A stretch of DNA of 64,000 bases, from assembly GCA_005881595.1 (NCBI GenBank), contig VBBY01000002.1, forward strand, positions 5,390 through 69,389, given 5' to 3'. Below are positions 2,789-20,184 of this stretch, one piece after another. Source of the DNA: Betaproteobacteria bacterium. GTDB taxonomy: Bacteria > Pseudomonadota > Gammaproteobacteria > Burkholderiales > SG8-39. A model generated the notes under the pieces. The model had not been told where the DNA came from. It searched no databases and saw only the letters and a program-made list of their open reading frames with translations. Position numbers and translations under genes: made by a program. Each line of letters starts with the position of its first letter. The first letter of the stretch is position 1.

Positions 2789-3832
2789 TCAAAAGCAGAT
2801 GACGCCCTTGCCGGTCGACTGGGTATCGAACACGCGGTAGGCCTCTTCTGCCTGCTCGAGCTTCCAGCGGTGCGAGAAGATCTTCTCTAGCGAAATGCGA
2901 TTGTCGACCACGAAGCGTGCGCATTCGGCCTGCCCCATCGCGCTGAACGTCCACGAACCGATCAGGGTGAGCTGCTTGCGCAGCAGGTCGCGGCTCACAT
3001 CGAGCGTGACTTCGCCTCCTTCTCCCACGAAGCACACGGTGCCCCAGGTTTTCGCCGAGCGAACTGCGGCGAGCCGCGCGGCGGCAATCCCGGTGCAATC
3101 GAGGGCCAGGTCCACGCCTTCGCCGCGGGTCAGGTCCTTCAATGCCTTTTCAGAATCATCGGCGTGAACGGCCGCCTCGGCGCCGAACTGCTTCGCTAGC
3201 GCGAGGCGCTCGGGGTTGGTTTCGACCGCGATGACCCGCGCCCCCATCTTCGCCCCCAGCAGGGTGGCGCTCAATCCGACCGGCCCCTGGCCGAACACGG
3301 CAAGGGTCGAGCCTCCCGCCAGATGCATGCGCCGCAGCGCGCCATAAGCCGTGCCGGTCCCGCAGGACACCGCGGCGCCCTCGACGAAGCTCAGCTCATC
3401 TGGCAGCGGAACGAGGGTACGCGCGGGCACTTTGAGGTATCCGGCATGGCCTCCGTTCGCGGTCACGCCATAGACGGTGATTCCGGCTTTGCATAGCTGC
3501 GACCAGCCGACCCGGCAGTGCTTGCACACGCCGCAACCCGAGTAATGATGGTCCATGACGCGCTGGCCGATGGGCGCTTCGCGTTCCGGCACCCCGGGGC
3601 CGCGCGCCGCGACCACGCCGCAGGGCTCGTGCCCGGCGATGAACGGCCCGGCATTGCCGCCCAGGCCGAGCGCCGCCTGCGCAGCGCCGGGCGGCGAGCG
3701 GTAGAACTTGAGATCGCTGCCGCACATGCCCGAGGCCTTCATCTCGATCACCACCTCGCCGGGACCTGGCGTCGGGTCCGGGAAATTGCGAACCTCGATT
3801 TTTCGGTCGCCCAGGAATACCGCGCCTTTCAT
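2789..3832 (-). CDS. Zinc-dependent alcohol/polyol dehydrogenase (MDR family)
   Basis: MKGAVFLGDRKIEVRNFPDP..., GHEPCGVV zinc motif, structural-zinc Cys cluster (CGVCKHCRVGWSQLC) and GxGxxG (VFGQGPVG). Start trimmed to ATG 3832, which overlaps the upstream stop as ATGA. Confidence 0.88.
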   Translation of the reverse strand: MKGAVFLGDRKIEVRNFPDPTPGPGEVVIEMKASGMCGSDLKFYRSPPGAAQAALGLGGNAGPFIAGHEPCGVVAARGPGVPEREAPIGQRVMDHHYSGCGVCKHCRVGWSQLCKAGITVYGVTANGGHAGYLKVPARTLVPLPDELSFVEGAAVSCGTGTAYGALRRMHLAGGSTLAVFGQGPVGLSATLLGAKMGARVIAVETNPERLALAKQFGAEAAVHADDSEKALKDLTRGEGVDLALDCTGIAAARLAAVRSAKTWGTVCFVGEGGEVTLDVSRDLLRKQLTLIGSWTFSAMGQAECARFVVDNRISLEKIFSHRWKLEQAEEAYRVFDTQSTGKGVICF

Positions 3833-4623
3833 GTAAACCTCACGTAACGATCCTTGCAGATTCGGAGCACCTCGTCGGGGTCGCGCTGCCACCAGTCGAG
3901 CTCGGAGAAGATCTCGACCTCGTGAAAGCCCGAGTATCCCGCGCCTTCGACCCAGGAGCGGATACGCGGCAGGTCGATCACGCCGTCGCCCATCATGCCG
4001 CGGTCGTTCAGCAGGTCACGCGTCGGCACCAGCCAGTCGCAGATGTGGTACGCGAGGATGCGCTTCTTTCCGGCGCGCTTGATCTGTTGCTCCAGCTTCG
4101 GATCCCACCAGACGTGGTAGACGTCGACCGCGACGCCGATTCCATCCTGGAGCAGTTCACAAAGATCCAAAGCCTGTTCCAGCGTATTGATGCACGCGCG
4201 CTCGGCCGCCTGCATGGGATGCAACGGCTCGATCGCCAGCGGCACGCCGGCCTTTCTTGCCTCCGGAAGGATGGTTGCAATGCCCTCTCTTACCCTCTCG
4301 CGGGATGAAATCAAGTCCTTCGATCCCTCGGCGAGGCCACCGACGACCAGCACCAGGCATTGCGCGCCGAGCGCATGCGCCTCCTCGATGGCGCGCCGGT
4401 TGTCGTCCCTCCAGTTCCTGGCAGTGAAGAAGCCGCCGCGGCACAGGCCGGTCACGCTCAGGCCATGCGAGTTGATGGATTTCACAGCTTCCTTCAAACC
4501 CATTTGCGCGACCTGGTCGCGCCAGGGCGAGATGCCGCGGATCTCATGGCGCGCGCAGCCCTCGATCATCTGGGCGAGGTTCCATTGCTTCTTCACCGTC
4601 GCGGTGTTGAGCGAAAGCTTCAC
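3829..4623 (-). CDS. Sugar phosphate isomerase/epimerase (xylose-isomerase-like TIM barrel)
   Basis: VKLSLNTATVKKQWNL..., typical TIM-barrel AP-endonuclease-2/IolE-like family sequence. GTG start at 4623 overlaps the dctM stop (GTGA). Confidence 0.75.
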   Translation of the reverse strand: MKLSLNTATVKKQWNLAQMIEGCARHEIRGISPWRDQVAQMGLKEAVKSINSHGLSVTGLCRGGFFTARNWRDDNRRAIEEAHALGAQCLVLVVGGLAEGSKDLISSRERVREGIATILPEARKAGVPLAIEPLHPMQAAERACINTLEQALDLCELLQDGIGVAVDVYHVWWDPKLEQQIKRAGKKRILAYHICDWLVPTRDLLNDRGMMGDGVIDLPRIRSWVEGAGYSGFHEVEIFSELDWWQRDPDEVLRICKDRYVRFT

Positions 4624-5939
4624 TTCAGCAGTTCGGGGGCGATCAGCTTGGGAAGGATCAGGGGAATCTCGGGCCAGATGATGATCGCCGCCAGCATCAG
4701 CAGCATCGGTATCAGCATGATCATGGTGTCCTTGAGCGCGAACTTGAGGGGCACCTTGGCCACTGCGCACGAGATCATCAGGCACAAGCCGTAAGGCGGC
4801 GTCACCAGGCCGAAGGCGAGCGAGACGATGCCGATGATGGCGAAGTGGATCGGATGCATGTGCACCGAATTGGCCAGCGGCTGCAGGATCGTGCCGACGA
4901 TGATGATCGCCGGTATGGCATCGAGGAAACAGCCGACCACCAGGAACACGAAGGCGATGAAAAAGCCGACGCCGGTAATTCCCATTCCCCAGCCGGTCAC
5001 GTTCTCGAGCAGCGCCTTCGGGATCTGGTAATAGGCGAGCAGCCAGCCGAATGCGGACGCCGTGCCGACGCAGAACAGGGCCACCGACGCGAGCCTCCCG
5101 GTTTCCGCGAACGCGTGGTAGAGCTGCTTCAGGTCCATCTCGCGGTAGATGAAGATGGAGAGGAGGGCCGCGTAGATCACCGCGACCGCGGCCGATTCGG
5201 TGGCAGTGAACCAGCCGAGCAGGATGCCGCCGACGATGATGAACGGGGTGAACAACGCCGGCAATGACTGCCAGGCCGAGACGAAGAACTCTTTCAGGTT
5301 AGAACGCGGATAGACCGGGTAGTGGTAAATCTTGGAATACACGTGGACGGTGACCATCTGCGCCGCCGCGATCAGCAGGCCCGGCAGGATGCCTGCCAGG
5401 TACATCGCGCCGATCGAGGTCGAGATCACCCCGCCCCAGACGATCATCAGGATGGAAGGCGGGATGATGACCGCGAGGACCGCCGAAACGGCGGTGATCG
5501 CTATGGAGAACGACAGGCCATAGCCTTCCTTCACCTGCGCCTCGATGAAGATCTTCGACTGGCTTGCCGCGTCCGCGGTGGAGGAGCCCGAGATGCCGGC
5601 GAAGAACACCGAGAGCAGCACGTTGATCTGGGCGAGCGCGCCGGGAAAGTGGCCCACCATGGTACGCGACAGGCGCACCAGCCGGTCGGTAATGCCGCCG
5701 ACGTTCATCAGGTTGGCGGTGAGCAGGAAGAACGGCACCGCGAGCAGGATGAACGAGTTGTACGCCTTGAAGGTCTCGTTGAAGAGCATCATCGGCGACA
5801 GGCGCGGCTCCGTGATCACCACCGGAAGGCACGCAAGCCCGAGCGCGAAGGCAACCGGCACGCGCGCCACCAGCAGCGCAAAGAACACGCCGAACAGCAC
5901 GAGCGCGGCCATCCCCGGGGCAAGGGCGACCGAGCTCAT
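4620..5939 (-). CDS. TRAP transporter large permease (DctM family)
   Basis: MSSVALAPGMAALVLFGVFFALLVARVPVAFALG..., GSSTADAASQSKIFI. Start trimmed to ATG 5939, which overlaps the dctQ stop (ATGA). Confidence 0.88.
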   Translation of the reverse strand: MSSVALAPGMAALVLFGVFFALLVARVPVAFALGLACLPVVITEPRLSPMMLFNETFKAYNSFILLAVPFFLLTANLMNVGGITDRLVRLSRTMVGHFPGALAQINVLLSVFFAGISGSSTADAASQSKIFIEAQVKEGYGLSFSIAITAVSAVLAVIIPPSILMIVWGGVISTSIGAMYLAGILPGLLIAAAQMVTVHVYSKIYHYPVYPRSNLKEFFVSAWQSLPALFTPFIIVGGILLGWFTATESAAVAVIYAALLSIFIYREMDLKQLYHAFAETGRLASVALFCVGTASAFGWLLAYYQIPKALLENVTGWGMGITGVGFFIAFVFLVVGCFLDAIPAIIIVGTILQPLANSVHMHPIHFAIIGIVSLAFGLVTPPYGLCLMISCAVAKVPLKFALKDTMIMLIPMLLMLAAIIIWPEIPLILPKLIAPELLK

Positions 5940-6406
5940 GAGCGCAAGATGCGGAAGTTGTCGACGAACGACTCGCCGAGGAACAGGATCCAGGTAAACC
6001 CGGCGAGCGGCCAGGCGATGAAAATCCACGGCATCGGCAGCTCCGCGAGCTCGGAGAGCTGGTCCCAGCCGAAGCGCACGAACTCGATGCCCCACCAGAC
6101 GAAAACCAGAGCGAATGCCAGGACGCACACCTGCGAGACGATGCGCAGCAGCGCGGTGGACTTCGGCCCGAGATCAGGCCAGACGTCGACCTCGAAGTGC
6201 GAGTGCTCGCGGATGCCGATCATCGCTCCGAGCATCACCATCCAGATGAACAGGAAGCGCGACAGCTCCTCGGTCCAGATCCAGGACGGGATCAGCTCGG
6301 TGTAGCGCGAGATGATCTGCAGCGTCACCGGGACGATCAGGATCGCGACCGTCCCCACCATCAGCCAGGTCAGCAGCCGATGGTACAGCTCGATGAAGCG
6401 CCTCAC
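5936..6406 (-). CDS. TRAP transporter small permease (DctQ family)
   Basis: The hydrophobic C-terminal 157 aa of ORF 5936..6673 is the plausible gene. GTG 6406 overlaps the dctP stop (GTGA). The upstream part of that ORF is Arg/Gly-rich run-on. Confidence 0.75.
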   Translation of the reverse strand: MRRFIELYHRLLTWLMVGTVAILIVPVTLQIISRYTELIPSWIWTEELSRFLFIWMVMLGAMIGIREHSHFEVDVWPDLGPKSTALLRIVSQVCVLAFALVFVWWGIEFVRFGWDQLSELAELPMPWIFIAWPLAGFTWILFLGESFVDNFRILRS

Positions 6407-7374
6407 TTGATCGCGTTGATCTTCGCGAAAATCGCGTCGGCGCCGATCTCCTTGGCGTAAGCCTCGATCACCGGGTCCACCGCTTTCTTCATCTGCGCCC
6501 GGTCCGAGAATGCAATGCGCTTGAGCTTGCCGGCCTTCTCCAGCGCGACCAGCTTCTGCTCGTCCTCGCTCGACTCGATTCTCCGGCCGTACGCGCCTGC
6601 TTCCTTGCCCGCCCTGAGCACCGCCGCCTGCAGGTCCTTGTCGAGGCCCTTGAACGTCTTGCCGGAGAAGCACAGCGGCCGGATGGTGATCGCGTGCTGC
6701 GTCATGTTGAGGTTGGGGCCCACCTCGTAGAACTTCATCTGCTCGACGCCCGCCGCCTCGTTCTCGCCGGCCTGGATGACGCCGTTCTGGATCGCGTTGT
6801 AGACCTCGTTATAGGCGATCACCGTAGGGGACATGCCTGCCGCGGCGAAGGTGCGGCTCCAGATCGGCGCGCCCTGCACGCGGACTTTCAGGTTCTTCAT
6901 CTCGGCCATGTTGCGCACCGGCTTGTTGGCGAAGATGTTGCGCGTGCCGCCGCCGGCGTAGCCGATCAGCATCACGTCGGCCTTCTGCGCGATCTCGTCG
7001 GCGATCGGTTTCAGGAGGTCGGCGTCGAGCACCTTGTTCCAGTGATCGAGGTCGCGGAAGATGAACGGCGCGTCGATGAACGGCGCCGCCTTCGAAAACG
7101 TCGACATGTGCGCCGGCGACACGATCGCGTAGTCGACCGCCTTGCCCTGGTTCATGTAGGCGAAATAGTCCTTCTCCAGGCCGAGCTCGCTGTTCTTGTG
7201 CAGCACGAAGCTGACCGGCTTGCCGTAGTACTTCTTCACCAGCTCCTCGAACCGCACCATCGCCTTGGTGAAGGCGTGCTCGTCGCTGAACTGCGAGGCG
7301 CCGTGCAGCGTGAGCTGCGCTGCGGCGGGAACAGCGATCAGAAGCAAGATGATTGCCGCGATAAACCGCTTCAT
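6403..7374 (-). CDS. TRAP transporter solute-binding protein (DctP family)
   Basis: MKRFIAAIILLLIAVPAAAQ signal peptide followed by a DctP-like body (APFIFRDLDHWNKV). ATG 7374 overlaps the upstream stop (ATGA). Confidence 0.88.
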   Translation of the reverse strand: MKRFIAAIILLLIAVPAAAQLTLHGASQFSDEHAFTKAMVRFEELVKKYYGKPVSFVLHKNSELGLEKDYFAYMNQGKAVDYAIVSPAHMSTFSKAAPFIDAPFIFRDLDHWNKVLDADLLKPIADEIAQKADVMLIGYAGGGTRNIFANKPVRNMAEMKNLKVRVQGAPIWSRTFAAAGMSPTVIAYNEVYNAIQNGVIQAGENEAAGVEQMKFYEVGPNLNMTQHAITIRPLCFSGKTFKGLDKDLQAAVLRAGKEAGAYGRRIESSEDEQKLVALEKAGKLKRIAFSDRAQMKKAVDPVIEAYAKEIGADAIFAKINAIK

Positions 7375-8192
7375 GATTTTCCCTCCTCCTTGACGGTGAT
7401 GCGCCACAGTGTACGCGGATCGTCCGGTTCGGTGAGCGTCGCCGCGTGCAGCAGCGACGCATTGTCCCAGATCACCACATCGCCGACCCCGTATTTGAGC
7501 CGGTACTGATACTTCTCCTGCGTCGCGTGGTCCCGCAGCTCATCGAGCAGGTCGATGGCTTCGTCCTGCGGCATGCCTTCGATGCCGAAGGAGCTGCCCG
7601 AGACGGCATAGAGCGCCTTGCGCCCGGTGACCGGGTGGCGGCGCACCACCGGATGGCGCACCCAGGTCACTTTCTTCTCCTGCTCCTCGGAAAGCACCGA
7701 GGCGACGGTGCGCGAGCCCTTGTCGAGGTCATCGCGGTTGCCGTAGTGATGCAGCGCAACGAGGCTTTCCAGCTTGTGCTTCATTGTCCCCGGAAGGGCG
7801 TCGTACGCGGCGTACTGGTTCGCGAACAGCGTATCGCCACCCTTGCTCGGCACCTGGATTGAATACAGCAGCGTCGCGCGCGCCGGCACTTCGAGATAGG
7901 AGTAGTCGGTGTGAAAGTACGTGCCGGCGTCCGCCAGGCCGGTCGGCGCGCCGTCCTTCTTCACGTTGGACAGGATCAGGATGTCGGCGTGCTCTGGATG
8001 GTGGAACTGGTCAATGACGTGCGGCTCGGGCCTGCCGAACTGGCGCGCGAACTCGAGGAACTGCGCCGCCTTCAGCTGCAGATTTCTGAACACCAGGATC
8101 TGCCCGGCAAAGAACGCATCCCAGACCTCCCGGAAATCGGGGCTGATCGCGTCAGCCTGCAGCCCGAAACCGCCGAGCTTCGTCAGCCGCAT
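7371..8192 (-). CDS. TauD/TfdA-family Fe(II)/2-oxoglutarate dioxygenase
   Basis: MRLTKLGGFGLQADAIS..., YFHTDYSY (HxD iron-binding motif) and GDTLFANQ. Start trimmed to ATG 8192, a 10-nt overlap with the upstream gene. Confidence 0.8.
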   Translation of the reverse strand: MRLTKLGGFGLQADAISPDFREVWDAFFAGQILVFRNLQLKAAQFLEFARQFGRPEPHVIDQFHHPEHADILILSNVKKDGAPTGLADAGTYFHTDYSYLEVPARATLLYSIQVPSKGGDTLFANQYAAYDALPGTMKHKLESLVALHHYGNRDDLDKGSRTVASVLSEEQEKKVTWVRHPVVRRHPVTGRKALYAVSGSSFGIEGMPQDEAIDLLDELRDHATQEKYQYRLKYGVGDVVIWDNASLLHAATLTEPDDPRTLWRITVKEEGKS

Positions 8193-9358
8193 CCGTGCAC
8201 CGCGAGAAGTTGCTTCATGCGCGCGCAGGCGAGCGGCGGATCCGACAGCAGCCCGGCGGCGTCGGCGAGCCTGAACAGCTCGCAGAAATGCAGCAGGTGG
8301 CGCGCCGACTGCTGGCCGCCGACCATCACGAAGTGGTCCTGGTGCCCGTTGAGCCACGCCATGAACACGACGCCGGTCTTGTAGAAGCGTGTCGGCGCAC
8401 AGAAGATATGGCGCGCAAGCGCCACGGTGGGAGCGAGCACCTCGTGGTATTCATCTTTTTTGTTAATGGTCAAAGCCGATAGCGCGTGCGAGGCGGCGGG
8501 GGCGATCGAGTCGAAGATGCCGAGCAGCGCATCCGAGTAGCCCTCGGCATCGCCCTCGATCAGCTCGGCGAAGTTGAAGTCGTCGCCGGTGTACATGCGC
8601 ACGCCCCTGGGCAGCCTGCGGCGCATGGCGACCTCCTTGCCTTTGTCGAGCAGGGAGATTTTGATCCCATCGACCTTGGCTTTGTTTCTTTTCAAAATCT
8701 CTAAACAGTTTTCCACCGCCGCATGGTGATCCCTGTTGCCCCAATATCCCTCCAGCGCCGGGTCGAACATCTCGCCCAGCCAGTGGATGATCACCGGCTC
8801 TTTGACCTGCGACAGGATGCGGTCGTACACGCGCGCGTAGTCCTCGGGCGACTTGGCGCGGGCCGCCAGCGCGCGGCTCGCCATGAGGATGATGCGGCCG
8901 CCTAGCTTCTCGATCGAAGCGCATTGGGCTTCGTACGCGGAAATGATTTCCTCGATTGAAAACTCTTTATGCAAAGACAAGTGGTCCGTTCCCGCCCCTG
9001 AAGCGACGAAGGCACCCGGTGCATCTCTCGCTGCATCCAGGGTTTTCTTTATTAATTCCAAAGAGCTTGGCCAGTCGAGCCCCATGCCGCGCTGCGCCGT
9101 GTCCATCGCTTCGGCGATCCCCAGCCCCCAGGACCACAGGTGCCTGCGGTACGCGATCGTTGCCTCCCAGTCGATCGCCGGCTCGAGCCAGGGCTCCCTG
9201 GTCGAGAAAGGATCGGCGACGACATGCGCCGCGGCCAGGGCACGCCGGGTAAACGGTTTCGCCGGCCTGCGAAAGGACTTGGGCTCCCGGACCGCATAGT
9301 CTTCGAGCGAGCCGCCAGCGCCGGGAAGCTTGATGGCTAGAATCGTGTCGCGTTTCAT
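8183..9358 (-). CDS. DUF993-family protein (DHDPS-like TIM-barrel fold, function unknown)
   Basis: AAAHVVADPFS...IDWEATIAYRRHLWSWGLGIAEAMDTAQRGMGLDW matches my memory of the conserved DUF993 core. ATG 9358 overlaps the upstream stop (ATGA). Confidence 0.65.
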   Translation of the reverse strand: MKRDTILAIKLPGAGGSLEDYAVREPKSFRRPAKPFTRRALAAAHVVADPFSTREPWLEPAIDWEATIAYRRHLWSWGLGIAEAMDTAQRGMGLDWPSSLELIKKTLDAARDAPGAFVASGAGTDHLSLHKEFSIEEIISAYEAQCASIEKLGGRIILMASRALAARAKSPEDYARVYDRILSQVKEPVIIHWLGEMFDPALEGYWGNRDHHAAVENCLEILKRNKAKVDGIKISLLDKGKEVAMRRRLPRGVRMYTGDDFNFAELIEGDAEGYSDALLGIFDSIAPAASHALSALTINKKDEYHEVLAPTVALARHIFCAPTRFYKTGVVFMAWLNGHQDHFVMVGGQQSARHLLHFCELFRLADAAGLLSDPPLACARMKQLLAVHGCG

Positions 9359-10503
9359 GCTTTCAGCCTCGGCACATCGAGCCACTTTTTCCGCTGCCAG
9401 CTCCTCCAGCCCAGCTCCGCGAGCTGCACGCCTCTCGCGCCCTCGAGCAGGTTCCAGCGGAAGGCGCCTTCGCCGGCGACGTGCTTGAGAAAGAGCTCCC
9501 ACTGCACCTTGAAGGCGTTGTCGTAGCCGGCGTCGGGCACCTCATGCCAGCCTTCGAAGAAATTGATCGGTTGCGGAATGTCCGGGTTCCACACCGGCTT
9601 CGGAGTTCTTTCATACGGTTGAATCAAACAACGTCGTAGGCCTGCGACCGCGCTGCCGTGCGTGCCGTCCACTTGCAGCGTGAGCAGGTCGTCGCGCCGC
9701 ACGCGCACGGCCCAGGAAGAGTTGAAATGCGCGATGACCCCGCCGGCGAGCTTGAACGTCGCGTAGGCAGCGTCATCGGCCGTCGCCCTGTACCTCTTGC
9801 CGTTCTCGTCCCAGCGATACGGGATGTGGGTCGCGCCCAGGCATGAAAGCGCTTTGACTTCCCCGAACAGGTTGTCGAGCACGTAGCGCCAGTGGCACAG
9901 CATGTCGAGGATGATGCCGCCGCCGTCCTGCTTGCGGTAGTTCCACGACGGGCGCTGCGCGGGCTCGCGGTCGCCCTCGAACACCCAGTAGCCGAACTCG
10001 CCGCGCACCGACAGCAGCCTGCCGAAAAAGCCCGCGTCGCGCAGCTTCTGCAGCTTCAGCAGCCCCGGCAGCCAGAGCTTGTCCTGCACCACGCCGTGCT
10101 TCACCCGCGCCTTTTTCGCCGCCTGGTACAGGTCCATGGACTCGGCGAGCGAGGTGGCGAGCGGCTTCTCGCAGTACACGTGCTTGCCCGCCGCGATCGC
10201 CCGCTTGAGGAGCCTTGGCCTGAGCTGGGTCGAGGCGGCGTCGAAGAAGACTTCATCTTTCTCGCGCGCAAGCGCCTGATCCAGATCCGTCGTCCAGCGC
10301 TCCACGCCATGCTTCTTCGCCAGCTCCTCGACCTTCGCCGCATTTCGTCCGACCAGCAACGGGTCGGGCATGACGCGCGTGCCGTCCTTCAGCGCCACGC
10401 CGCCCTGCTTGCGGATCTCCAGGATCGAGCGCACCAGGTGCTGGTTCATGCCCATGCGCCCGGTGACGCCGTGCATGATGATGCCGATTCGCCTTTCGCT
10501 CAC
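9355..10503 (-). CDS. Gfo/Idh/MocA-family NAD(P)-dependent oxidoreductase
   Basis: RIGIIMHGVTGRMG Rossmann N-terminus and the EKP motif (VYCEKPLA). GTG 10503 overlaps the upstream stop (GTGA). Confidence 0.82.
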   Translation of the reverse strand: MSERRIGIIMHGVTGRMGMNQHLVRSILEIRKQGGVALKDGTRVMPDPLLVGRNAAKVEELAKKHGVERWTTDLDQALAREKDEVFFDAASTQLRPRLLKRAIAAGKHVYCEKPLATSLAESMDLYQAAKKARVKHGVVQDKLWLPGLLKLQKLRDAGFFGRLLSVRGEFGYWVFEGDREPAQRPSWNYRKQDGGGIILDMLCHWRYVLDNLFGEVKALSCLGATHIPYRWDENGKRYRATADDAAYATFKLAGGVIAHFNSSWAVRVRRDDLLTLQVDGTHGSAVAGLRRCLIQPYERTPKPVWNPDIPQPINFFEGWHEVPDAGYDNAFKVQWELFLKHVAGEGAFRWNLLEGARGVQLAELGWRSWQRKKWLDVPRLKA

Positions 10504-11903
10504 TGCATTCTCCTCATCGCCTCCCAGTCCGGCATCGCCGCGCTGGCAAAGCCGGGGCAATCGAGCGAGCCGATCTGGAGGTCGCCATCGCTTATTTTCA
10601 ATCTGACGGCGCCGTGGCTGCGCTCGTACAGATCCGGGTGCGCTTCAAGGAACGCCGCCTGTTCCGCGAGCGGCAACCCCGCCATGCCGTTGACGTAGTG
10701 ATGGCCGTTGCGCTCGGCGTGGGCCAGGCCGAGGAGCGAGACGAGCGCGAGGTCCTGCTGCAGCGCAAGGCCGGCCTGCAGCGTCAGGTCCTCGCCCGAC
10801 ATGAAGTAGCGCGCGGCGCCTTCCTCGCGGTTCCACAGCCGGCAGCGCGCCGCGTTGAGCAGCGACTTGTAGAGGCCCTTGCAGGTCTTGGACGAGACCC
10901 CGGTATAACCCAGGCGCCGCGCCCGCGGAAACGCCTCGAGCGAATCGTCCGACTCGTCGATGATCACCGGCTTTTCCTCCGCCAGCGCCGACACGTCGCC
11001 GGAGAGCGCGTGCTGCCGGTTCACCGGCTGCTCGATGAAGGCGATGCTCGAGGCGAGGCGCTTGAGGCGCGGCTCCGCCCGGATGCGCCGCCACAGCTCG
11101 AGCGCGCCGGCGGCGCTGGCGTACTGCTCGTTGCCGTCGAGCGTCGCCTGGTACGGCTCCTCGTTGCGATCGAGGACTGCCGCGATGGCGAGCAGGCGCT
11201 CCACGTCGGCCTTCGCATCGCCGCCGACCTTGAGCTTGAACCAGCGGTGCCCGTAGCGCGCGACGACCTCGCCGAGCGTCTCGGGCAGGCCGTCGTTGAC
11301 CTTCTTGTCGGCAGGGGTCACCGGATCCAGCAGGCCGACGGTGTGCCGGGCCGCGATCTGCGTCGCGGGCGAGAGCTGCGATAGAAACTCGTCCATGTCG
11401 AACCCCGCCAGGTCAGCCTGCCAGCCCGGTGCCGAGATGCCGGGCAGGTTGCTGCGGACCGCCTCGTAGAACGAGACGCCGAGCGCGCGGCACAGCGCGT
11501 CGAGCAGGGCGCGGTCGATGAGCGCCGGGCCGAAGCAGGCGGTGAGGCTGTTCATGCCTTGCGTGGCCCCGAGCGCGATTTGCGGGCCGTAGTTGTCGAT
11601 CCAGTGGCCGAATGCGGTGTTGTCGCCGGCGGCGAGGTAGGCGTCGCGCGCCAGCGCCAGCGAGGCGCGCAACTGATCGATGTTCTGCTCGTTGCTGAGC
11701 GCCGGGTCCTTGTCGAACCATTTCGGCACCAGCATTTCGGCCGCCGCGCCTTCGTCCTCCTTGCCGTCCTCGAGGGCGATGCGGGCGCGCACGAAGGCCT
11801 GCGGCGCCGAGGTGAGCGTCACGACCCCGAACCGGAACGGCAGCCTGAGCCGCACCTCGCGCTCGAAAAAGGAAATTTCTTTTATTGAAAACCGTATTCG
11901 CAC
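10500..11903 (-). CDS. Enolase-superfamily enzyme (mandelate racemase/muconate lactonizing-like)
   Basis: FKLKVGGD, LDGNEQY, IEQPV and IIDESD match the KxK / DxN / E / DE metal and base ligands. Start is uncertain; GTG 11903 was chosen because it lies 7 nt after the upstream stop. Confidence 0.72.
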   Translation of the reverse strand: MRIRFSIKEISFFEREVRLRLPFRFGVVTLTSAPQAFVRARIALEDGKEDEGAAAEMLVPKWFDKDPALSNEQNIDQLRASLALARDAYLAAGDNTAFGHWIDNYGPQIALGATQGMNSLTACFGPALIDRALLDALCRALGVSFYEAVRSNLPGISAPGWQADLAGFDMDEFLSQLSPATQIAARHTVGLLDPVTPADKKVNDGLPETLGEVVARYGHRWFKLKVGGDAKADVERLLAIAAVLDRNEEPYQATLDGNEQYASAAGALELWRRIRAEPRLKRLASSIAFIEQPVNRQHALSGDVSALAEEKPVIIDESDDSLEAFPRARRLGYTGVSSKTCKGLYKSLLNAARCRLWNREEGAARYFMSGEDLTLQAGLALQQDLALVSLLGLAHAERNGHHYVNGMAGLPLAEQAAFLEAHPDLYERSHGAVRLKISDGDLQIGSLDCPGFASAAMPDWEAMRRMQ

Positions 11904-11910
11904 GGTAGGG

Positions 11911-12753
11911 TCAAGGCGTCGGATTGTCGAGAGCTTCGAGCACGCCGCGCACGTAGCCGATGGCGCGCGCCGCGGCGCCGGGGCCATCGGGAACATAGTC
12001 GAAGGGTTCCACCGCGACGTCGCCGTCATAGCGATGTCGCCTCAGCGCGGCGAACAGCGGAGCGAATTTCTGCTCGCCCTGTCCCGGGCCGCGGCGGTTG
12101 CGATCGTTCAGCTGCACGTGCGCGATCACGCCCTCCGGCAGCCAGCGCTCGACCAGCGCTGCAAGCGGCTGCTTCTCCATGCGGCCCGCGGCGCTGCAAT
12201 CGAGCATGCTCTTGATTGAAGTGCTGCCGATGTCCTTCACGATGCGGGCGGCCTCCTCCAGCGTGTTGATGAGCGGCGTCTGCTCGGCCGAGAGCGCCTC
12301 GATGCAATACAGAACGCCTGCCTTCTCGGCGCGCTCGGCCACTGCCGCAAAGCTGTCCCGCGCGCGTGCCAGCGCGGCCGCGCGCGTCTCGCCGGGCTCG
12401 ACGCGCCGCTGGTGCGGCGAGCCGTGCACCAGGTAGCGGCCGCCGAGTTCGGCGCATTGGTCGATGAGCGCGAGCATGACGTCGATGCTGCGCCGGCGTA
12501 CCGCGTCGTCGCGCGTCGAGATCGAAAGCCCCGCCGGCTTGACCAGCAGCCAGTGCAGGCCGGTGATGGCGATGCCCGCGTCGGCGGCCGCGGCGCGCGC
12601 CGCGGCGAGCTGGGCGCTGCCCAGGCGGTGCGGTTCGTCGGACAGGGTATAGGGCGCAATCTCGAGGCCATCGTAGCCGAGCTTGGCGGCGTAGGCGCAT
12701 TGCGCCGGGAACGGCATCGGCGCGATCACCTCGTTGCACAGCGCAATTCTCAC
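11911..12753 (-). CDS. Sugar phosphate isomerase/epimerase (xylose-isomerase-like TIM barrel), first gene of the operon
   Basis: MRIALCNEVIA..LGYDGLEIAP.., LYCIEAL and VQLNDRN are typical of the family. A 95-nt divergent intergenic region lies upstream. Confidence 0.75.
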   Translation of the reverse strand: MRIALCNEVIAPMPFPAQCAYAAKLGYDGLEIAPYTLSDEPHRLGSAQLAAARAAAADAGIAITGLHWLLVKPAGLSISTRDDAVRRRSIDVMLALIDQCAELGGRYLVHGSPHQRRVEPGETRAAALARARDSFAAVAERAEKAGVLYCIEALSAEQTPLINTLEEAARIVKDIGSTSIKSMLDCSAAGRMEKQPLAALVERWLPEGVIAHVQLNDRNRRGPGQGEQKFAPLFAALRRHRYDGDVAVEPFDYVPDGPGAAARAIGYVRGVLEALDNPTP

Positions 12754-12848
12754 GCCGATCTCCTCAGCGGAGACATTATCACGGGAGGTTTTATCTTTGC
12801 GGGCGCGGTGGTATGTTTTGCCCTACCGCAGGTCAGGGGGAGGGGCCC

Positions 12849-14087
12849 ATGAGACTACCGACGCTCGCCGTGTCGCTGTGCGCGCTTGTGTTGGGTCCGG
12901 CATGGGCGGACCACGAGTCCCGCCTGCCACGCAACGCTTCGTTCACCACGCTCAGCGTCACCCCGTTCGCGATCGAGGGCCTCACCGGCGATGCGGCCGG
13001 CAACCTGTACACCACAGGCCGGCAACCCGATACCACCAGGAGCTGCCCGGTGTGGCGGATCGGCGTCGACGGCTCGCGCGCTACCGTGGGCTTCATCCCG
13101 AACTCCACGGGCTGCAATCCGTCCGGGATCACGTTCGACCGCGGCGGCGATCTCTATATCGCCGATGCGGCGACCATCTCGGGGGTCAGCGGCTTTGTCT
13201 GGAAAGTGACTCCTCACCCCATCGGTTGCCAGTCCGACGACTCGGCGGCCACGCTTTGCGCTGCGGTTCCATTGGCGAGCGCGTTTGTGTCCGGGGTGCC
13301 GGGAACGAACGGCCTGGCATTCGATCGCGATGGCAATCTCTGGACTGGCGACGGAACGACGGGACTGGGGCGCGTCTGGAGGATCGGCGCTGCGGGAGGC
13401 GTGTGCGAGCCCGCGTTCAACAGATGCGCAGAAGCGTTCCGCATTCAACCGATGGCGAACACCGCCAGTGTGGGGAGGCAGGCAAATACACTGCAGCCGC
13501 CTCAAACGCCCACCGCCGGTCCGAATCCCCAGCCTCTCGTGGCGAACGGTGTGGCCTTTGACCCTGAAGGGGACCTTTACGTCGCCGACACTGCGCGGGG
13601 TGCCCTCTGGAAGGTCGAGTTCGACCGCCGCGGCAATCTGCGCAGCGCGACCGGCTGCGATGCCACGTTCACCGCGAATACGCTCTGCCTGGACAACATC
13701 CTGGTCGCACATCCGTACCTGGAGGGCACCGACGGCATCGCGCTGGACCGGGCGGGAAACATCTGGAACGCGACCAACGAGCGCAACGCCGTCGTTGTCG
13801 TGACGAGGCACCGCCACGTCGTCGAGGTGTTCCGCAATCCCGTTAACGCCGCCGGACTGAGGAACGCGGCCGATACGGCGGAAGGCAACAAGCACATTCT
13901 CGAGCTTCCGACGAGCCCGTTCCTGCACGGCAGGAAGTTCTGCACCGCCAATTCGGACGGCAACCGGCGCGACAACTCGCCGCGCAGCGCCGGCGAAATC
14001 AATGCTGGCACCGGCGGCGCAAGAGGGAAGATTTCGTGCATGGACCAGGAGCTTCCGATTCCCGGGCTGACGCTGCCCGTGCATTGA
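12849..14087 (+). CDS. Secreted beta-propeller protein (SMP-30/gluconolactonase/NHL-like)
   Basis: MRLPTLAVSLCALVLGPAWA signal peptide with a GGGGGAGGGG Shine-Dalgarno upstream. Repeated motifs of the type GNLYT, GDLYIAD, GNLWTGD, GDLYVAD and GNIWNA are typical of 6-bladed propellers. Confidence 0.7.
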   Translation: MRLPTLAVSLCALVLGPAWADHESRLPRNASFTTLSVTPFAIEGLTGDAAGNLYTTGRQPDTTRSCPVWRIGVDGSRATVGFIPNSTGCNPSGITFDRGGDLYIADAATISGVSGFVWKVTPHPIGCQSDDSAATLCAAVPLASAFVSGVPGTNGLAFDRDGNLWTGDGTTGLGRVWRIGAAGGVCEPAFNRCAEAFRIQPMANTASVGRQANTLQPPQTPTAGPNPQPLVANGVAFDPEGDLYVADTARGALWKVEFDRRGNLRSATGCDATFTANTLCLDNILVAHPYLEGTDGIALDRAGNIWNATNERNAVVVVTRHRHVVEVFRNPVNAAGLRNAADTAEGNKHILELPTSPFLHGRKFCTANSDGNRRDNSPRSAGEINAGTGGARGKISCMDQELPIPGLTLPVH

Positions 14088-14095
14088 AGCCGGGT

Positions 14096-14515
14096 TTACC
14101 GCAGCTTCGCGCCCCAGGTCTTCTCCCAGTCCTTGCCGAGGAAATCGGTCTCGCGCCCGTCGGGCCGATAGAACTTGTTCGGGATCTGGAACATGGCGAG
14201 CATCAGGCCGCCTTGCGGCCCGGCCCAGGCTTCGTGCCGGCTGCCGGCGGGGCGCCAGACGAATTCGCCCGCCTTGCACACGCCTTCGCCGCAGACCAGG
14301 CTGCCCTCGAGCACGTAGGTCTGCTCGATCCTCACGTGCTCGTGGTCCGGCAGCCGCGCGCCCGGCGCCATTTTCATGAGCAGCGTCATCACCCCGGTGG
14401 CGCGATCGACGAGCAGCGATTTGGTCTCGACGCCCGGATACGGCGTCTTTTCCCAGGGCAGGCGCTCGACGTCGACGAAGCGTGAGGCCTTGGGCGGCAG
14501 GCTGGCGTGGGTCAT
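14096..14515 (-). CDS. Cupin-domain protein (ChrR-like cupin)
   Basis: The last 139 codons of ORF 14096..15757 read PGARLPDHEHVRIEQTYVLEGSL...RPAGSRHEAWA, a cupin motif. ATG 14515 overlaps the pyk stop (ATGA). Confidence 0.7.
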   Translation of the reverse strand: MTHASLPPKASRFVDVERLPWEKTPYPGVETKSLLVDRATGVMTLLMKMAPGARLPDHEHVRIEQTYVLEGSLVCGEGVCKAGEFVWRPAGSRHEAWAGPQGGLMLAMFQIPNKFYRPDGRETDFLGKDWEKTWGAKLR

Positions 14516-15951
14516 GGCGTGCGATGCTCCCCGACTCTGACGATCTTCATCGTGTTGGTGCCTCCGGCCTTGCCGATCGGCTCGCCGATGGTGAGCACGA
14601 TCAGGTCGCCCGCCTTCACGACCTTGTTCTCGACCAGCACCTTCTCCGCCTCGCGCAGCAGCTCCTCGCGGTCGTGCCCGACGTACTTCACCATCAACGG
14701 AAAGACTTCGCGGAACAGCGCGCAGCGATAGCGCGTCGAGGTCTGCGAGGTGAGGGCGTAGATCGGCACGCCGGCATTTAGGCGGCTCATCCACAGCGCG
14801 GTCGAGCCCGATTCCGTGAGCGAGGCGATCGCCTTGACCTTCAGGTGATAGGCGGTGAACAGGGCCGCCATGGCGATCGACTGGTCCACCCGCGTGAACA
14901 CGCGGTTGAAGAAGTCCTGGTCGAGGTTGAGCGGCTGCGTCTGCTCGGCCTCGATGCAGATTCGGTCCATCGCCTGGACCACTTCCACCGGGTATCTTCC
15001 GCTCGCCGTCTCCGCCGAGAGCATCACCGCGTCGGTGCCGTCGAGCACCGCGTTCGCCACGTCCGACACCTCGGCGCGCGTCGGCACCGGGCTCGAGATC
15101 ATCGACTCCATCATCTGGGTCGCGGTGATGGTGAGCCTGTTGTGCTCGCGCCCGAGCCGGATCATCTTCTTCTGCAGCGCCGGCACCGCGGCGTCGCCGA
15201 CCTCCACGGCGAGATCGCCGCGCGCCACCATGATGCCGTCGGAGCCGCGCATGATGTCGACGAGCGCGCTTTCGGCCACCGCCTCGGCGCGCTCGATCTT
15301 GGCGATGAGGAAGGCGTTGCCGCCGGCGGCACGCATCAGCTCCCGCGCCATGTACATGTCGGCGCCGGACTTCGGGAACGACACGGCGAGGTAATCCGCC
15401 TGGATCTTCACCGCGGTCCTGATGTCCTCCATGTCCTTGGAGGTGAGCGCCGCTGCGGTCAGGCCGCCGCCTTGCCGGTTGATGCCCTTGTTGTTCGACA
15501 GCACGCCGCCGTGGCGGACCACCGTTTGCACCTCGTCGCCTTTGACGCCCGTGACCTCGAGCACGATCTTGCCGTCGTCGAGCAGCAGCACCGCGCCGGG
15601 CTCGACGTCGCGCGGCAGCTCCTTGTAATCGAGGCCGGAGCGCTCGCTGTCGCCCAGCTCGCAGGCCGCGTCGAGGACGAAGCGCTGCCCCCTCTCGAGC
15701 GTGATCTTGCCGTCCTTGAACCTGCCGACGCGGATCTTCGGCCCCTGCAGGTCGCACATGATGGCCACCGTGCGGCCGGTCTTCGAGGCGATGCTCTTCA
15801 CCAGCGCCGCGCGCTGCTCGTGGTCCGCGGCGCTGCCGTGCGAGAAGTTGAGCCGCACCACGTCCACGCCGGCGCGGAGCATGCGTTCGAGCACCGTTGA
15901 GTCGCTGGAAGCCGGACCGAGGGTGGCCACGATCTTGGTGCTGCGGGGCAT
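14512..15951 (-). CDS. pyk: Pyruvate kinase
   Basis: MPRSTKIVATLGPAS..., NFSHG, MVARGDLAVE and ATQMMESM are canonical pyruvate kinase motifs. Confidence 0.95.
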   Translation of the reverse strand: MPRSTKIVATLGPASSDSTVLERMLRAGVDVVRLNFSHGSAADHEQRAALVKSIASKTGRTVAIMCDLQGPKIRVGRFKDGKITLERGQRFVLDAACELGDSERSGLDYKELPRDVEPGAVLLLDDGKIVLEVTGVKGDEVQTVVRHGGVLSNNKGINRQGGGLTAAALTSKDMEDIRTAVKIQADYLAVSFPKSGADMYMARELMRAAGGNAFLIAKIERAEAVAESALVDIMRGSDGIMVARGDLAVEVGDAAVPALQKKMIRLGREHNRLTITATQMMESMISSPVPTRAEVSDVANAVLDGTDAVMLSAETASGRYPVEVVQAMDRICIEAEQTQPLNLDQDFFNRVFTRVDQSIAMAALFTAYHLKVKAIASLTESGSTALWMSRLNAGVPIYALTSQTSTRYRCALFREVFPLMVKYVGHDREELLREAEKVLVENKVVKAGDLIVLTIGEPIGKAGGTNTMKIVRVGEHRTP

Positions 15952-16000
15952 TCGGGTAACCTTAACCAGTCAGGCTGCGATGTGCAAGAAGCTGATCCGT

Positions 16001-17143
16001 TCAATCATCCGCACGCGCTTCAAGAGCCGCCACGGCAGGCAAGGTCTTGCCCTCGAGAAACTCCAGAAACGCGCCGCCTGCCGTGGAAACGTAGTCGATC
16101 TTGCCGCCGATGCCGAACCTGTTGATCGCCGCGACGGTATCTCCGCCGCCGGCGATGGAATAAGCCTCCGAGTTCGCGATCGCCTCGGCGATAGTGCGGG
16201 TGCCGTTCGCGAACTGGTCCTTCTCGAACAGACCCACCGGACCGTTCCAGACGATCGTTCCAGCCTTGGCGATCCCATCGGCATAGGCGCGTGCGGTCTT
16301 CGGGCCGATGTCCAGGATGACGTCGCCGGCGGCCACGTCATCAACGCTTTTCACTTTTGCGTCGGTAACGACGACATCTGCCGGAAGGCGCACCTTTCCG
16401 GTCGCCATGATCCTCTTCGCTTCGCGCGTGAGCTCGGGCTCGGCCAGCGACTTGCCGATCGGTTTCCCCGCCGCGAGCAGAAAAGTATTCGCGATGCCGC
16501 CGCCGACGATCAGGCTGTCGACTTTTTTCGCCAGCTCGCCGAGCACCGAGAGCTTGGTCGATACCTTCGAGCCGCCGACGATCGCCATCAGCGGGCGCGC
16601 GGGATGCGCGAGCGCGTGCCCGAGCGCGTCCAGCTCAGCCGCCATCAGCGGCCCGGCGCAGGCAACGAGCGCGAATCGCGCAACAGCGTGCGTGGTCGCT
16701 TCCGCGCGATGCGCGGCTCCGAAAGCGTCGTTCACATAGACGTCGCAAAGCGCGGCGATTTTCCTGGCCAGAGCTGCGTCGTCTTTTTTCTCGCCCTTGT
16801 TGACCCGGCAGTTCTCCAGCATGACCACGTGTCCTGGCTCGACCTTCACCCCATTTACCCAGTTGGAAATCAGAGGAACTTCAACACCTAAAATCTCTGC
16901 CAGCCTCTTCGCTACCGGAGCGAGGGAGTCCTCGGGCTTGAGCACGCCTTCCTTGGGCCTGCCCAGGTGCGAAGTCACCATCACGGCGGCGTTCTGCTCC
17001 AGCGCACGGCGGATGCCTGGCAGCGAAGCGCGAATGCGCGTGTCGTCGGTGATCCTGCCGTTGTCGATCGGCACGTTGAGATCGGCGCGGATGAACACCC
17101 GCTTGCCGGTGAGCGGCACTTCGGTCATGCGTTTGAAGCGCAC
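16001..17143 (-). CDS. pgk: Phosphoglycerate kinase
   Basis: [19 protein letters not shown] and [14 protein letters not shown]. The first ATG was taken; ATG at codon 6 is an alternative. Confidence 0.95.
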
Positions 17144-17147
17144 GGCC

Positions 17148-18161
17148 CTACTTCGCGTTCATCAGCGCCACGGTGGCGTCGAGCATGCGGTTGGAGAAGC
17201 CCCACTCGTTGTCGTACCAGGCGCAGACTTTCACCAGCGTGCCCTCGGCCACACGGGTCAGCCCGGCGTCGAGAATGGCGCTCGCCGGGTGGTGGTTGAA
17301 GTCCGAGGACACCAGCGGCTCGCTGGTGTACTCGAGCAGGCCCTTCAGGTCGGTCTCGGAGGCCTGTTTCACCGCCTTGTTGACCTCGTCGACGCTGGTC
17401 GGCCTTTTCGCGACGAACGAAAGATCGACGAGCGAGACGTTGATCGTCGGCACCCGGATCGAAAAGCCGTCGAGCTTGCCCTTCAGGTGCGGCAGCACCA
17501 GGCCGACCGCGGCGGCGGCGCCGGTCTTCGTCGGGATCATGTTGTGGGTCGCCGAGCGCGCCCGGCGCAGGTCCTTGTGGTACACGTCGGTCAGGACCTG
17601 GTCGTTGGTGTAGGAGTGCACCGTGTTCATCAACCCCGAGACCATGCCGATGCGGTCGTCGAGCGCCTTGACGAGCGTCGCGAGGCAGTTCGTGGTGCAC
17701 GACGCGTTCGAGATCACCGTGTCCGAGCCCTGCAGCGACTGGTGGTTGACGCCGCAGACGATGGTGCGGTCGACGTCGCTTTCGCCCGGCGCCGAAATGA
17801 TCACCTTCCTTGCTCCCGCCTGCAGGTGCGCGCCCGCCCTGGCCTTGCTGGTGAACAGCCCCGTGCATTCGAGCACCACGTCGATGCCGAGCTGCTTCCA
17901 CGGCAGCTTCGCGGGATCGCGCTCCGCCGCCACGCGAATGCGCTCGTCGTCGACCACCATGCTCTCTCCGTCCACGCGCACGCTGCCCGGGAACCTGCCG
18001 TGCGCGGTGTCGTACTTCAGCAGGTGGGCGTTGGTCCGGGCGTCGCCCAGGTCGTTGATCGCCAGGAACTGCAGGCCGTGCTTCTTGCCGCCCTCGTAAT
18101 GGGCGCGCAGCACCATGCGCCCGATCCGGCCGAAGCCGTTGATCGCCACCTTGATAGTCAT
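17148..18161 (-). CDS. gap: Glyceraldehyde-3-phosphate dehydrogenase
   Basis: [24 protein letters not shown] active site and WYDNEWGFS. Confidence 0.96.
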
Positions 18162-20158: not shown

Positions 20159-20184
20159 CGGAGGCCGCAAATTATACTCGGCGC

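Follow-up and report, generated by a model that had tools for sequence, protein, structure and literature searches.

What does a bacterium do with ten chained genes whose products spell out no pathway that an annotator could name? The question is raised by the minus strand of a 64,000-nt stretch of contig VBBY01000002.1 (assembly GCA_005881595.1; this whole stretch is called the window below), where a sequence-only reading had noted a chain of genes at 2789-12753. We find here that the ten genes are one tightly packed catabolic operon of an uncultured soil Burkholderiales and that this operon is a composite of three parts: a module around a protein of family DUF993, a cassette joining a TauD-type dioxygenase to an importer of the tripartite ATP-independent periplasmic (TRAP) kind, and a terminal zinc-dependent alcohol dehydrogenase (Zn-ADH). 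With moderate confidence, we propose that the operon serves the uptake and the oxidative, kinase-free breakdown of a hexuronate-type or substituted sugar acid. New here are the TauD-TRAP pair as a conserved unit, its repeated joining to genes for a uronate dehydrogenase (Udh) and a lactone isomerase (Gli), and the uronate island around this copy.

All ten open reading frames are open and in frame, and every junction of the chain described earlier was exact: seven 4-nt ATGA or GTGA overlaps (3829-32, 4620-23, 5936-39, 6403-06, 7371-74, 9355-58 and 10500-03), one longer overlap of 10 nt (8183-92) and a single gap, of 7 nt (11904-10). The earlier family calls also held, as a Pfam search recovered the expected family for every product; homologue alignments that start at or near residue 1 back the chosen start codons. 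In order of transcription, the genes are:

11911-12753, minus strand: gene 1, TIM1, xylose-isomerase-like TIM-barrel epimerase/isomerase, 280 aa (Pfam AP_endonuc_2, 2.9e-36)
10500-11903, minus strand: gene 2, ENOL, enolase-superfamily outlier, MLE-subgroup-like, 467 aa (weak MR_MLE_C match, 5.8e-10)
9355-10503, minus strand: gene 3, GFO, Gfo/Idh/MocA NAD(P) oxidoreductase, 382 aa (Pfam GFO_IDH_MocA N- and C-terminal domains)
8183-9358, minus strand: gene 4, DUF993, probable DHDPS/NAL-like TIM barrel, 391 aa (Pfam DUF993, 2e-180)
7371-8192, minus strand: gene 5, TauD/TfdA-family Fe(II)/2-oxoglutarate dioxygenase, 273 aa (Pfam TauD, 4.4e-60)
6403-7374, minus strand: gene 6, TRAP solute-binding protein DctP, 323 aa with signal peptide (Pfam DctP, 3.1e-53)
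5936-6406, minus strand: gene 7, TRAP small permease DctQ (Pfam DctQ, 1.7e-29)
4620-5939, minus strand: gene 8, TRAP large permease DctM (Pfam DctM, 5.3e-90; TIGR00786, 1e-100, above cut-off)
3829-4623, minus strand: gene 9, TIM2, second xylose-isomerase-like TIM barrel, 264 aa (Pfam AP_endonuc_2, 6.6e-35)
2789-3832, minus strand: gene 10, Zn-ADH, 347 aa (Pfam ADH_N and ADH_zinc_N)

Genes 6-8 were classed as a TRAP system on the adjacency of DctP, DctQ and DctM and on matches to TRAP_S1 and TIGR00786 above cut-off. A GAGGAG Shine-Dalgarno sequence lies 6 nt ahead of the GTG of gene 1, and terminator-like hairpins occur within the operon at the level of chance (7 versus 6.7 expected). The presumed control region lies upstream of gene 1, and a scan of it for the sigma-70 consensus gave no match:

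12754-12848, no strand: 95-bp divergent intergenic region between the operon GTG (12753) and the ATG of a propeller gene (12849), presumed promoter/operator

The source genome is a 3.79-Mb metagenome-assembled genome (MAG) that is 96.6% complete, and the deposits of its close relatives are soil MAGs named 'Burkholderiales bacterium'. Near-identical DNA was present in 19 soil metagenome runs, which belong to 14 studies. Contigs from three of these runs, each from a separate study, span all 30 bins of the window, and the arrangement of the operon is therefore not an assembly artefact. The sole metatranscriptome run with matches yielded short contigs of 90-95% identity that come from relatives and say nothing on co-transcription.

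Given the mixture of families, we asked which genes travel together. Among 301 Burkholderiales genomes searched with the ENOL protein, 16 were carriers, and 13 loci were fetched (loci, genomes and families carry L, G and f numbers below). The block common to the fetched loci is TIM1-ENOL-GFO-DUF993-TIM2, with TIM1 upstream of the enolase gene in nine of the 13; TauD and the same TRAP system were present only in the genome of the same genus. In a second sample of 400 genomes of the phylum, DUF993 was found in 31, and where its identity was at least 59%, GFO and TIM2 flanked it nearly always. Other families of the phylum retain the GFO-DUF993-TIM2 trio, either along with ENOL or lacking it, and in one of them (f107) ENOL also lies upstream of the three. 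GFO adjoins DUF993 at 63-84% identity in loci of several families and classes, and TIM2 (55-76% identity) directly follows DUF993 in loci that lack the TauD-TRAP cassette. Which importer stands beside this core varies by genome: TctCBA, a different TRAP system, or an ABC system of NitT/TauT type whose binding protein is NMT1. All are of anion type. Orthologues of the Zn-ADH (83-86% identity) stand at the operon end in L020, L093 and L099, with other genes between TIM2 and the dehydrogenase.

The window copy thus shares with other core loci the same Gfo/Idh/MocA dehydrogenase, DUF993 protein and TIM barrel, often the enolase outlier of ~470 aa, and importers of acid type. It differs from them in the cassette inserted between DUF993 and TIM2, in the Zn-ADH at its end, in having no adjacent regulator and in sharing an island with Udh, Gli and another TRAP system. 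Some relatives show further variation. In L020 (10884-11943, genome G166) and L101 (8879-9336), the DUF993 match is broken into two pieces that overlap and lie in different frames, suggesting that the gene is frameshifted or decaying, or that assembly errors occurred. In family f61 (L023, genome G242, 13323-15739, and L022, 5438-6661), the module is accompanied by a beta-hydroxyacid dehydrogenase, a MetE-like (Meth_synt_2) protein and an extra canonical MR/MLE enolase, which would be additional members of the regulon.

We then followed the cassette. A search of species-representative genomes with the window TauD returned 531 relatives, of which the best 80 were mapped as loci. These 80 (63-82% identity) are almost all from uncultured soil or freshwater Burkholderiales; the remainder includes the isolate Ramlibacter lithotrophicus and a few Alphaproteobacteria. 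The window's TRAP system adjoins TauD in 59 of the 80 loci, and genes of the DUF993 module are present in 28. Where the cassette is embedded, the usual order is DUF993-TauD-DctPQM-TIM2; L124 alone has DUF993-DctPQM-TauD-TIM2. No TauD orthologue above 42% identity was found among the 400 genomes of the phylum sample. Orthologues of the TRAP genes in other families (65-75% identity) have no TauD alongside, and their neighbours (a beta-lactamase-fold protein, an HWE kinase and an enoyl-CoA hydratase) give no clue to the substrate. TauD and DctPQM thus form a separate unit, which joined the DUF993 operon in this lineage. The view that the ten genes form one dedicated pathway unit accordingly gives way to a modular one, as the cassette also occurs alone and as the Zn-ADH and transporters are swapped among relatives. 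The layout TIM1-GFO-TauD-DctPQM, without ENOL and DUF993, occurs in L094, L096, L098, L103 and L114 (TauD 77-81% identity); the module can thus drop both orphan enzymes and retain the dehydrogenase and the cassette. A 770-aa gene upstream of stand-alone cassettes, considered as a TonB receptor, was rejected as such and proved to be a BTAD/SARP regulator.

The surroundings of the operon speak more directly to the substrate. Within an island of ~19 kb, the operon is accompanied by Udh, by a Gli-like lactone isomerase and by a further TRAP importer, convergent with the operon. The DctP gene of this second importer begins at contig position 5341, 48 nt before the window, and the 5.4 kb of contig ahead of the window (part of L174, G000:C172:1-6400) carry four minus-strand genes divergent from the importer. 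These features are listed here, the four genes with positions on the full contig (G000:C172):

1-2784 of the window, plus strand: second, convergent TRAP system, comprising DctP2 (5´ end off the window), DctQ2 (985-1503) and DctM2 (1504-2784) (Pfam DctP 2.2e-77, DctM 8.6e-118)
G000:C172:1662-2819, minus strand, upstream of the window: GFO2, second Gfo/Idh/MocA protein
G000:C172:2650-3471, minus strand, upstream of the window: Gli-like Amidohydro_2 protein (PDB 4mup 7.4e-58; next matches LigI lactonases)
G000:C172:3462-4277, minus strand, upstream of the window: uronate dehydrogenase Udh, 271 aa (full-length matches to 6mfh 5.5e-62, 3ay3 3.1e-60 and 3rft 1.9e-59)
G000:C172:4274-5296, minus strand, upstream of the window: D-2-hydroxyacid dehydrogenase

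Udh lies ~8 kb from the 3´ end of the operon, and it and the Gli-like gene are 8-10 kb away, beyond the second TRAP system. The entry 4mup is, we take it, Atu3138, the galactarolactone isomerase Gli. DctP2 matches PDB entries 4xfe (1.8e-117) and 4x04 (3.3e-108), presumably complexes with D-glucuronate that came out of the EFI's screen of TRAP binding proteins, and we read the second TRAP as hexuronate-type. Its small permease, DctQ2, is 21% identical to the DctQ of the operon.

The association of Udh and Gli with the cassette recurs elsewhere. L126 carries DctP-DctQ-DctM-TauD-Udh-Gli on one strand and L120 carries TauD-Udh-Gli, with a 4-nt overlap of Udh and Gli in both. In L123 and L109, Udh-Gli lie a short way downstream of TauD; homologues of Gli, of the 2-hydroxyacid dehydrogenase (2-Hacid_dh) or of GFO2 flank the cassette in L138 and L156; and in Ramlibacter lithotrophicus RBP-1, which has DctPQM-TauD and carries DUF993 at another place in its genome, Udh is 1 kb from TauD. 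Genome G209, of the same family and without TauD, has Udh ~3 kb downstream of the DUF993 module. Across the 400-genome sample, Udh was present in 16 of 30 genomes with DUF993 versus 35 of 370 others, an odds ratio of ~11. The five best Udh matches in genomes with the module, from the other family f107, are 13-22 kb from it. Two genomes have Udh matches with in-frame TGA codons, one in G688:C30:108040-108831 and two in G058:C1:983276-984070; these may be pseudogenes or sequencing errors.

The two orphan enzymes of the module were examined by structure and profile. ENOL had no NCBIfam match. Its AlphaFold2 model (pLDDT 95.4) has a capping domain and a modified TIM barrel, and the top 50 Foldseek matches all belong to the enolase superfamily (probability 1.00, TMt 0.64-0.77), the best being MLE, NSAR/OSBS, dipeptide epimerases and 3,6-anhydro-L-galactonate cycloisomerase at 12-19% identity. 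Residues K223, K225, D256, E291, D316 and K339 are invariant in 48 sequences. In the model, the metal-ligand trio D256/E291/D316 follows strands 252-256, 287-291 and 313-315 (barrel strands 3, 4 and 5), and the acid/base pair comprises the KxK lysines K223/K225 on strand 221-225 (strand 2) and K339 after strand 335-338 (strand 6). On this predicted structure, the pattern of residues at strand ends is the signature of the MLE subgroup. At a threshold of 1e-30, the family holds 551 representative clusters.

For DUF993, a Pfam scan up to an E-value of 10 returned nothing besides DUF993 itself, and no PF00701. The protein matches PDB entry 4dnh (1.5e-168), titled 'uncharacterized protein', and our search of the literature on DUF993, PF06187 and 4DNH found no published function, in agreement with the sequence-only reading. 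A language-model feature search (ESM-Atlas) gave DHDPS as its nearest clusters, with a score of 0.85 and 173 shared features. It is likely, if unproven, that DUF993 is a DHDPS-like barrel.

In the window TauD, H94, D96 and H249 correspond to the iron triad of E. coli TauD (H99, D101 and H255) and are invariant in 12 sequences, T121 and R260 correspond to the 2-oxoglutarate-binding T126 and R266, and R264 corresponds to R270, the arginine for the anionic group of the substrate. His70 and Tyr73 of E. coli TauD become Ile and Phe in an alignment where gap placement is ambiguous. The two proteins are 29% identical, and the window enzyme is equally far from taurine dioxygenases, phenoxyalkanoate dioxygenases, alkylsulfatases and ScoE. 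It lies under every NCBIfam equivalog cut-off; taurine dioxygenase proper was rejected at 151.6 bits versus a cut-off of 313.

The operon's DctP matches PDB entries 4nx1 and 4ovp at 1e-103, and the best structural match of its model is 4ovp (Z 37.1), from Sulfitobacter sp. NAS-14.1 (EFI-510292). We take these two structures to have been solved with D-mannuronate and D-taluronate. A literature search for 4NX1, 4OVP, EFI-510292, or TRAP with taluronate or mannuronate found nothing relevant, and a homologue search with the binding protein returned only soil-metagenome relatives of at least 91% identity with generic names.

The oxidative uronate pathway begins with Udh and Gli and continues with an enolase-superfamily enzyme, Gci, and a DHDPS-family enzyme, KdgD. 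This pathway, which operates in Agrobacterium tumefaciens and Pseudomonas and comprises Udh, Gli, Gci, KdgD and KGSA dehydrogenase, is the closest known system. The locus shares with it Udh, the 4mup homologue and the kinase-free make-up, and the enolase-superfamily enzyme and DHDPS-like barrel of the operon would have the folds used by Gci and KdgD. The earlier verdict that no pathway could be named was thus too strong, given an operon beside Udh, a Gli-like isomerase and a TRAP system read as hexuronate-type, with two members that mirror Gci and KdgD. The differences are also clear: ENOL is far from solved members of its superfamily (12-19% identity), DUF993 lacks PF00701 and is not KdgD, and the operon's Gfo/Idh/MocA dehydrogenase, two TIM barrels, Zn-ADH and TauD have no place in that pathway. 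KdgD itself was not recognised among the three DHDPS-family proteins of the genome, which scored 58-115 bits against TIGR03249 (cut-off 374), an absence left unproven by a genome 96.6% complete.

From the observed gene order, families, catalytic residues, modular make-up and Udh/Gli association, we infer every substrate and reaction of the following route. DctPQM would take up an anionic, hexuronate-type sugar. TauD would then use O2 and 2-oxoglutarate to act on the uronate once imported, or on a derivative of it; in the simplest case, a substituent would be removed or oxidised and the product could enter the uronate route. That TauD turns a substituted or unusual uronate into a substrate of this route is the simplest reading because Udh-Gli follow TauD in several operons. 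Udh and the Gli-like lactone isomerase would yield an aldarolactone, GFO and both TIM barrels might adjust oxidation state and stereochemistry, ENOL could open the ring or dehydrate its substrate in the manner of Gci, giving a 2-keto-3-deoxy acid, DUF993 could perform a KdgD- or aldolase-like step, and the Zn-ADH may handle an aldehyde or alcohol product. A more specific version of this proposal, in which TauD is a new uronate-processing oxygenase with its own TRAP system, for example an O-demethylase of xylan-derived 4-O-methyl-D-glucuronate or an oxidative remover of another substituent, that makes modified plant uronates accessible to the oxidative pathway, and ENOL and DUF993 are non-orthologous replacements of Gci and KdgD, seems to us unlikely.

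Several observations weigh against the hexuronate proposal. Shared ancestry inflates the co-occurrence counts of Udh and DUF993, and with relatives that are not independent the p-value is overstated. Three canonical MR-type enolases are encoded elsewhere in the genome, and one of them could be the real Gci. The hhalign comparison of DUF993 with DHDPS is weak (probability 10.8%, E 0.003, 193 columns), even as it aligns the invariant K233 (DGIKIS) with the Schiff-base lysine of the DHDPS GIKD motif; this register is suggestive but too weak to support a claim by itself. The operon's DctP is only ~58% identical to 4nx1 by eye and 50% in the structure alignment, and the ligands named here for 4ovp, 4nx1, 4xfe and 4x04, like the identity given for 4mup, are presumed. 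Approximately 30 Burkholderiales loci hold DctPQM-TauD without the module, amid the housekeeping genes CtaA, PCuAC, ZnuA and UPF0149. In ten genomes with only the cassette, five had no DUF993 match and five had no Udh match, and these proportions establish neither a strict link nor independence. Finally, the top NCBIfam names for three products come from inositol or related pathways, all far below cut-off: IolG/levoglucosan dehydrogenase for GFO, IolO 5-keto-L-gluconate epimerase and D-psicose 3-epimerase for TIM1, and IolM scyllo-inosose 3-dehydrogenase for the Zn-ADH (167 bits versus a cut-off of 450).

The arginine R264 and the pairing of a dioxygenase with an importer could also point to sulfosugars. 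The TauD-TRAP cassette would then be a functional analogue of sulfo-ASDO, importing sulfoquinovose or another sulfonated or sulfated sugar and releasing sulfite or sulfate, and the Zn-ADH or another dehydrogenase would convert the resulting C6 aldehyde to glucose or to a uronate for Udh and the DUF993 enzymes. Published sulfo-ASDO clusters of Marinomonas and Marinobacterium (SqoD, SqoKLM and SquF) do join a PF02668 dioxygenase, a TRAP importer and a reductase (PMC10507154; PMC12951627), and the window likewise has a PF02668 dioxygenase and TRAP unit with a reductase-type gene nearby. R264 aligns with the sulfonate-binding arginine of E. coli TauD, and a hexodialdose product would be one oxidation short of a uronate, which would explain the Udh neighbours. 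However, SqoD represents a separate branch: it shares 15.5% identity with E. coli TauD, is closest in structure to At3g21360 and holds the sulfonate without Arg or Lys (PMC12951627), whereas the window enzyme appears to belong to the classic TauD/TfdA/AtsK branch and retains the cationic arginine. SqoD (9YUT-9YUX) was also not among 37 PDB matches of the TauD family profile, in a PDB copy whose inclusion of these entries is uncertain. The same arginine is found in TfdA and RdpA, which use carboxylates. The 80 TauD loci showed no gene for a sulfoquinovosidase, a SquF-type reductase, a sulfite exporter or a sulfite dehydrogenase; the window enzyme neighbours uronate enzymes rather than SquF or GntR and comes from soil Burkholderiales rather than marine Oceanospirillaceae. 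On this evidence, we consider a sulfosugar route quite unlikely.

To the same degree, we doubt that the cassette merely hitch-hikes in the operon as a self-contained scavenging unit, for example one that, like tauABCD or atsK, obtains its sulfur from a sulfonate or a sulfate ester, co-transcribed with the other genes and with no metabolic link to them. Its existence as a four-gene cassette on its own in the ~30 loci described above would fit such a role, as would the lack of DUF993 in half of the ten cassette-only genomes and the two orders, mostly TauD-DctPQM and in L124 DctPQM-TauD, in which it sits within the module. The composition of TauD could be read in the same way, and was counted for the sulfosugar route as well: the protein has no Cys and two internal Met, giving 0.73% Cys+Met versus a window mean of 4.1%. 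E. coli TauD is likewise sulfur-poor, and it is a sulfate-starvation protein. The low sulfur content may simply run in the family, or it may hint that the protein is expressed when sulfur is limiting; with a binding protein that is not sulfur-poor (DctP, 3.4%), it does not decide between the readings. Against a stand-alone sulfur unit, at least 23 loci keep the embedded layout, at TauD identities as low as ~72%, and at least five further lineages join the cassette to Udh/Gli-type genes, twice with a stop/start overlap, which would be unexpected for sulfur scavenging. The nearest solved relatives of the binding protein are, on the ligands we presume, sugar-acid binders.

The sequence-only reading had placed the substrate among acidic polyols, cyclitols and sugar-acid derivatives, and of these the last fits best, the cyclitol and polyol options having only below-threshold family matches. 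In a cyclitol or keto-sugar route, for an inositol-like cyclitol, polyol or 3-keto-glycoside, GFO would be IolG-like, the TIM barrels IolE/IolI/IolO-like and the Zn-ADH would act as IolM; a Gfo/Idh/MocA dehydrogenase with xylose-isomerase-like barrels is a hallmark of inositol and keto-glycoside pathways, and the inositol pathways of Thermotoga maritima (IolG/M/N/O) and Bacillus subtilis (IolE/I) share these families and the Zn-ADH with the operon. IolO also makes a uronate, D-tagaturonate, from 5-keto-L-gluconate. Nonetheless, we regard this route as very improbable, because the matches are 3- to 10-fold under the curated equivalog cut-offs, every importer found with the core is of anion type (TRAP, TctCBA or NitT/TauT), no IolB/C/D/J/N-type genes were seen, ENOL, DUF993 and TauD have no counterpart there, an enolase-superfamily enzyme requires a carboxylate substrate, and the Udh/Gli association favours uronates.

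Uronic acids from pectin, xylan and microbial polymers represent a large flux of soil carbon. If the hexuronate proposal is correct, DUF993 and the ~470-aa enolase-like family with its 551 clusters would gain a pathway context, and uronate catabolism would acquire a step that depends on O2 and 2-oxoglutarate; we know of no such oxygenase step described so far. The recurrent TRAP-TauD(-Udh-Gli) cassette would then offer a concrete entry point in the form of a binding protein and an oxygenase. Should the 4-O-methyl-glucuronate-type version apply, two large orphan families would receive functions at once. Were the cassette instead a sulfonate system, it would represent a second, independent TauD-type sulfosugar route, in soil Betaproteobacteria.

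Across the presumed promoter region, the operon is bordered by one divergent gene:

12849-14087, plus strand: secreted SGL/NHL beta-propeller, lactonase-like, with a signal-peptide-like N-terminus (Pfam SGL 4e-12, and NHL)

The propeller gene occupies the same place in L096 (69% identity) and is absent from most other relatives, and its link to the operon is uncertain; as a guess, a periplasmic lactonase role would suit aldarolactone chemistry. Beyond the propeller, a tkt-gap-pgk-pyk operon lies on the minus strand at 14096-20170, its last gene encoding a ChrR-like cupin. The cupin-pyk pair also flanks the DUF993 operon in L019, L020, L030, L094 and L096.

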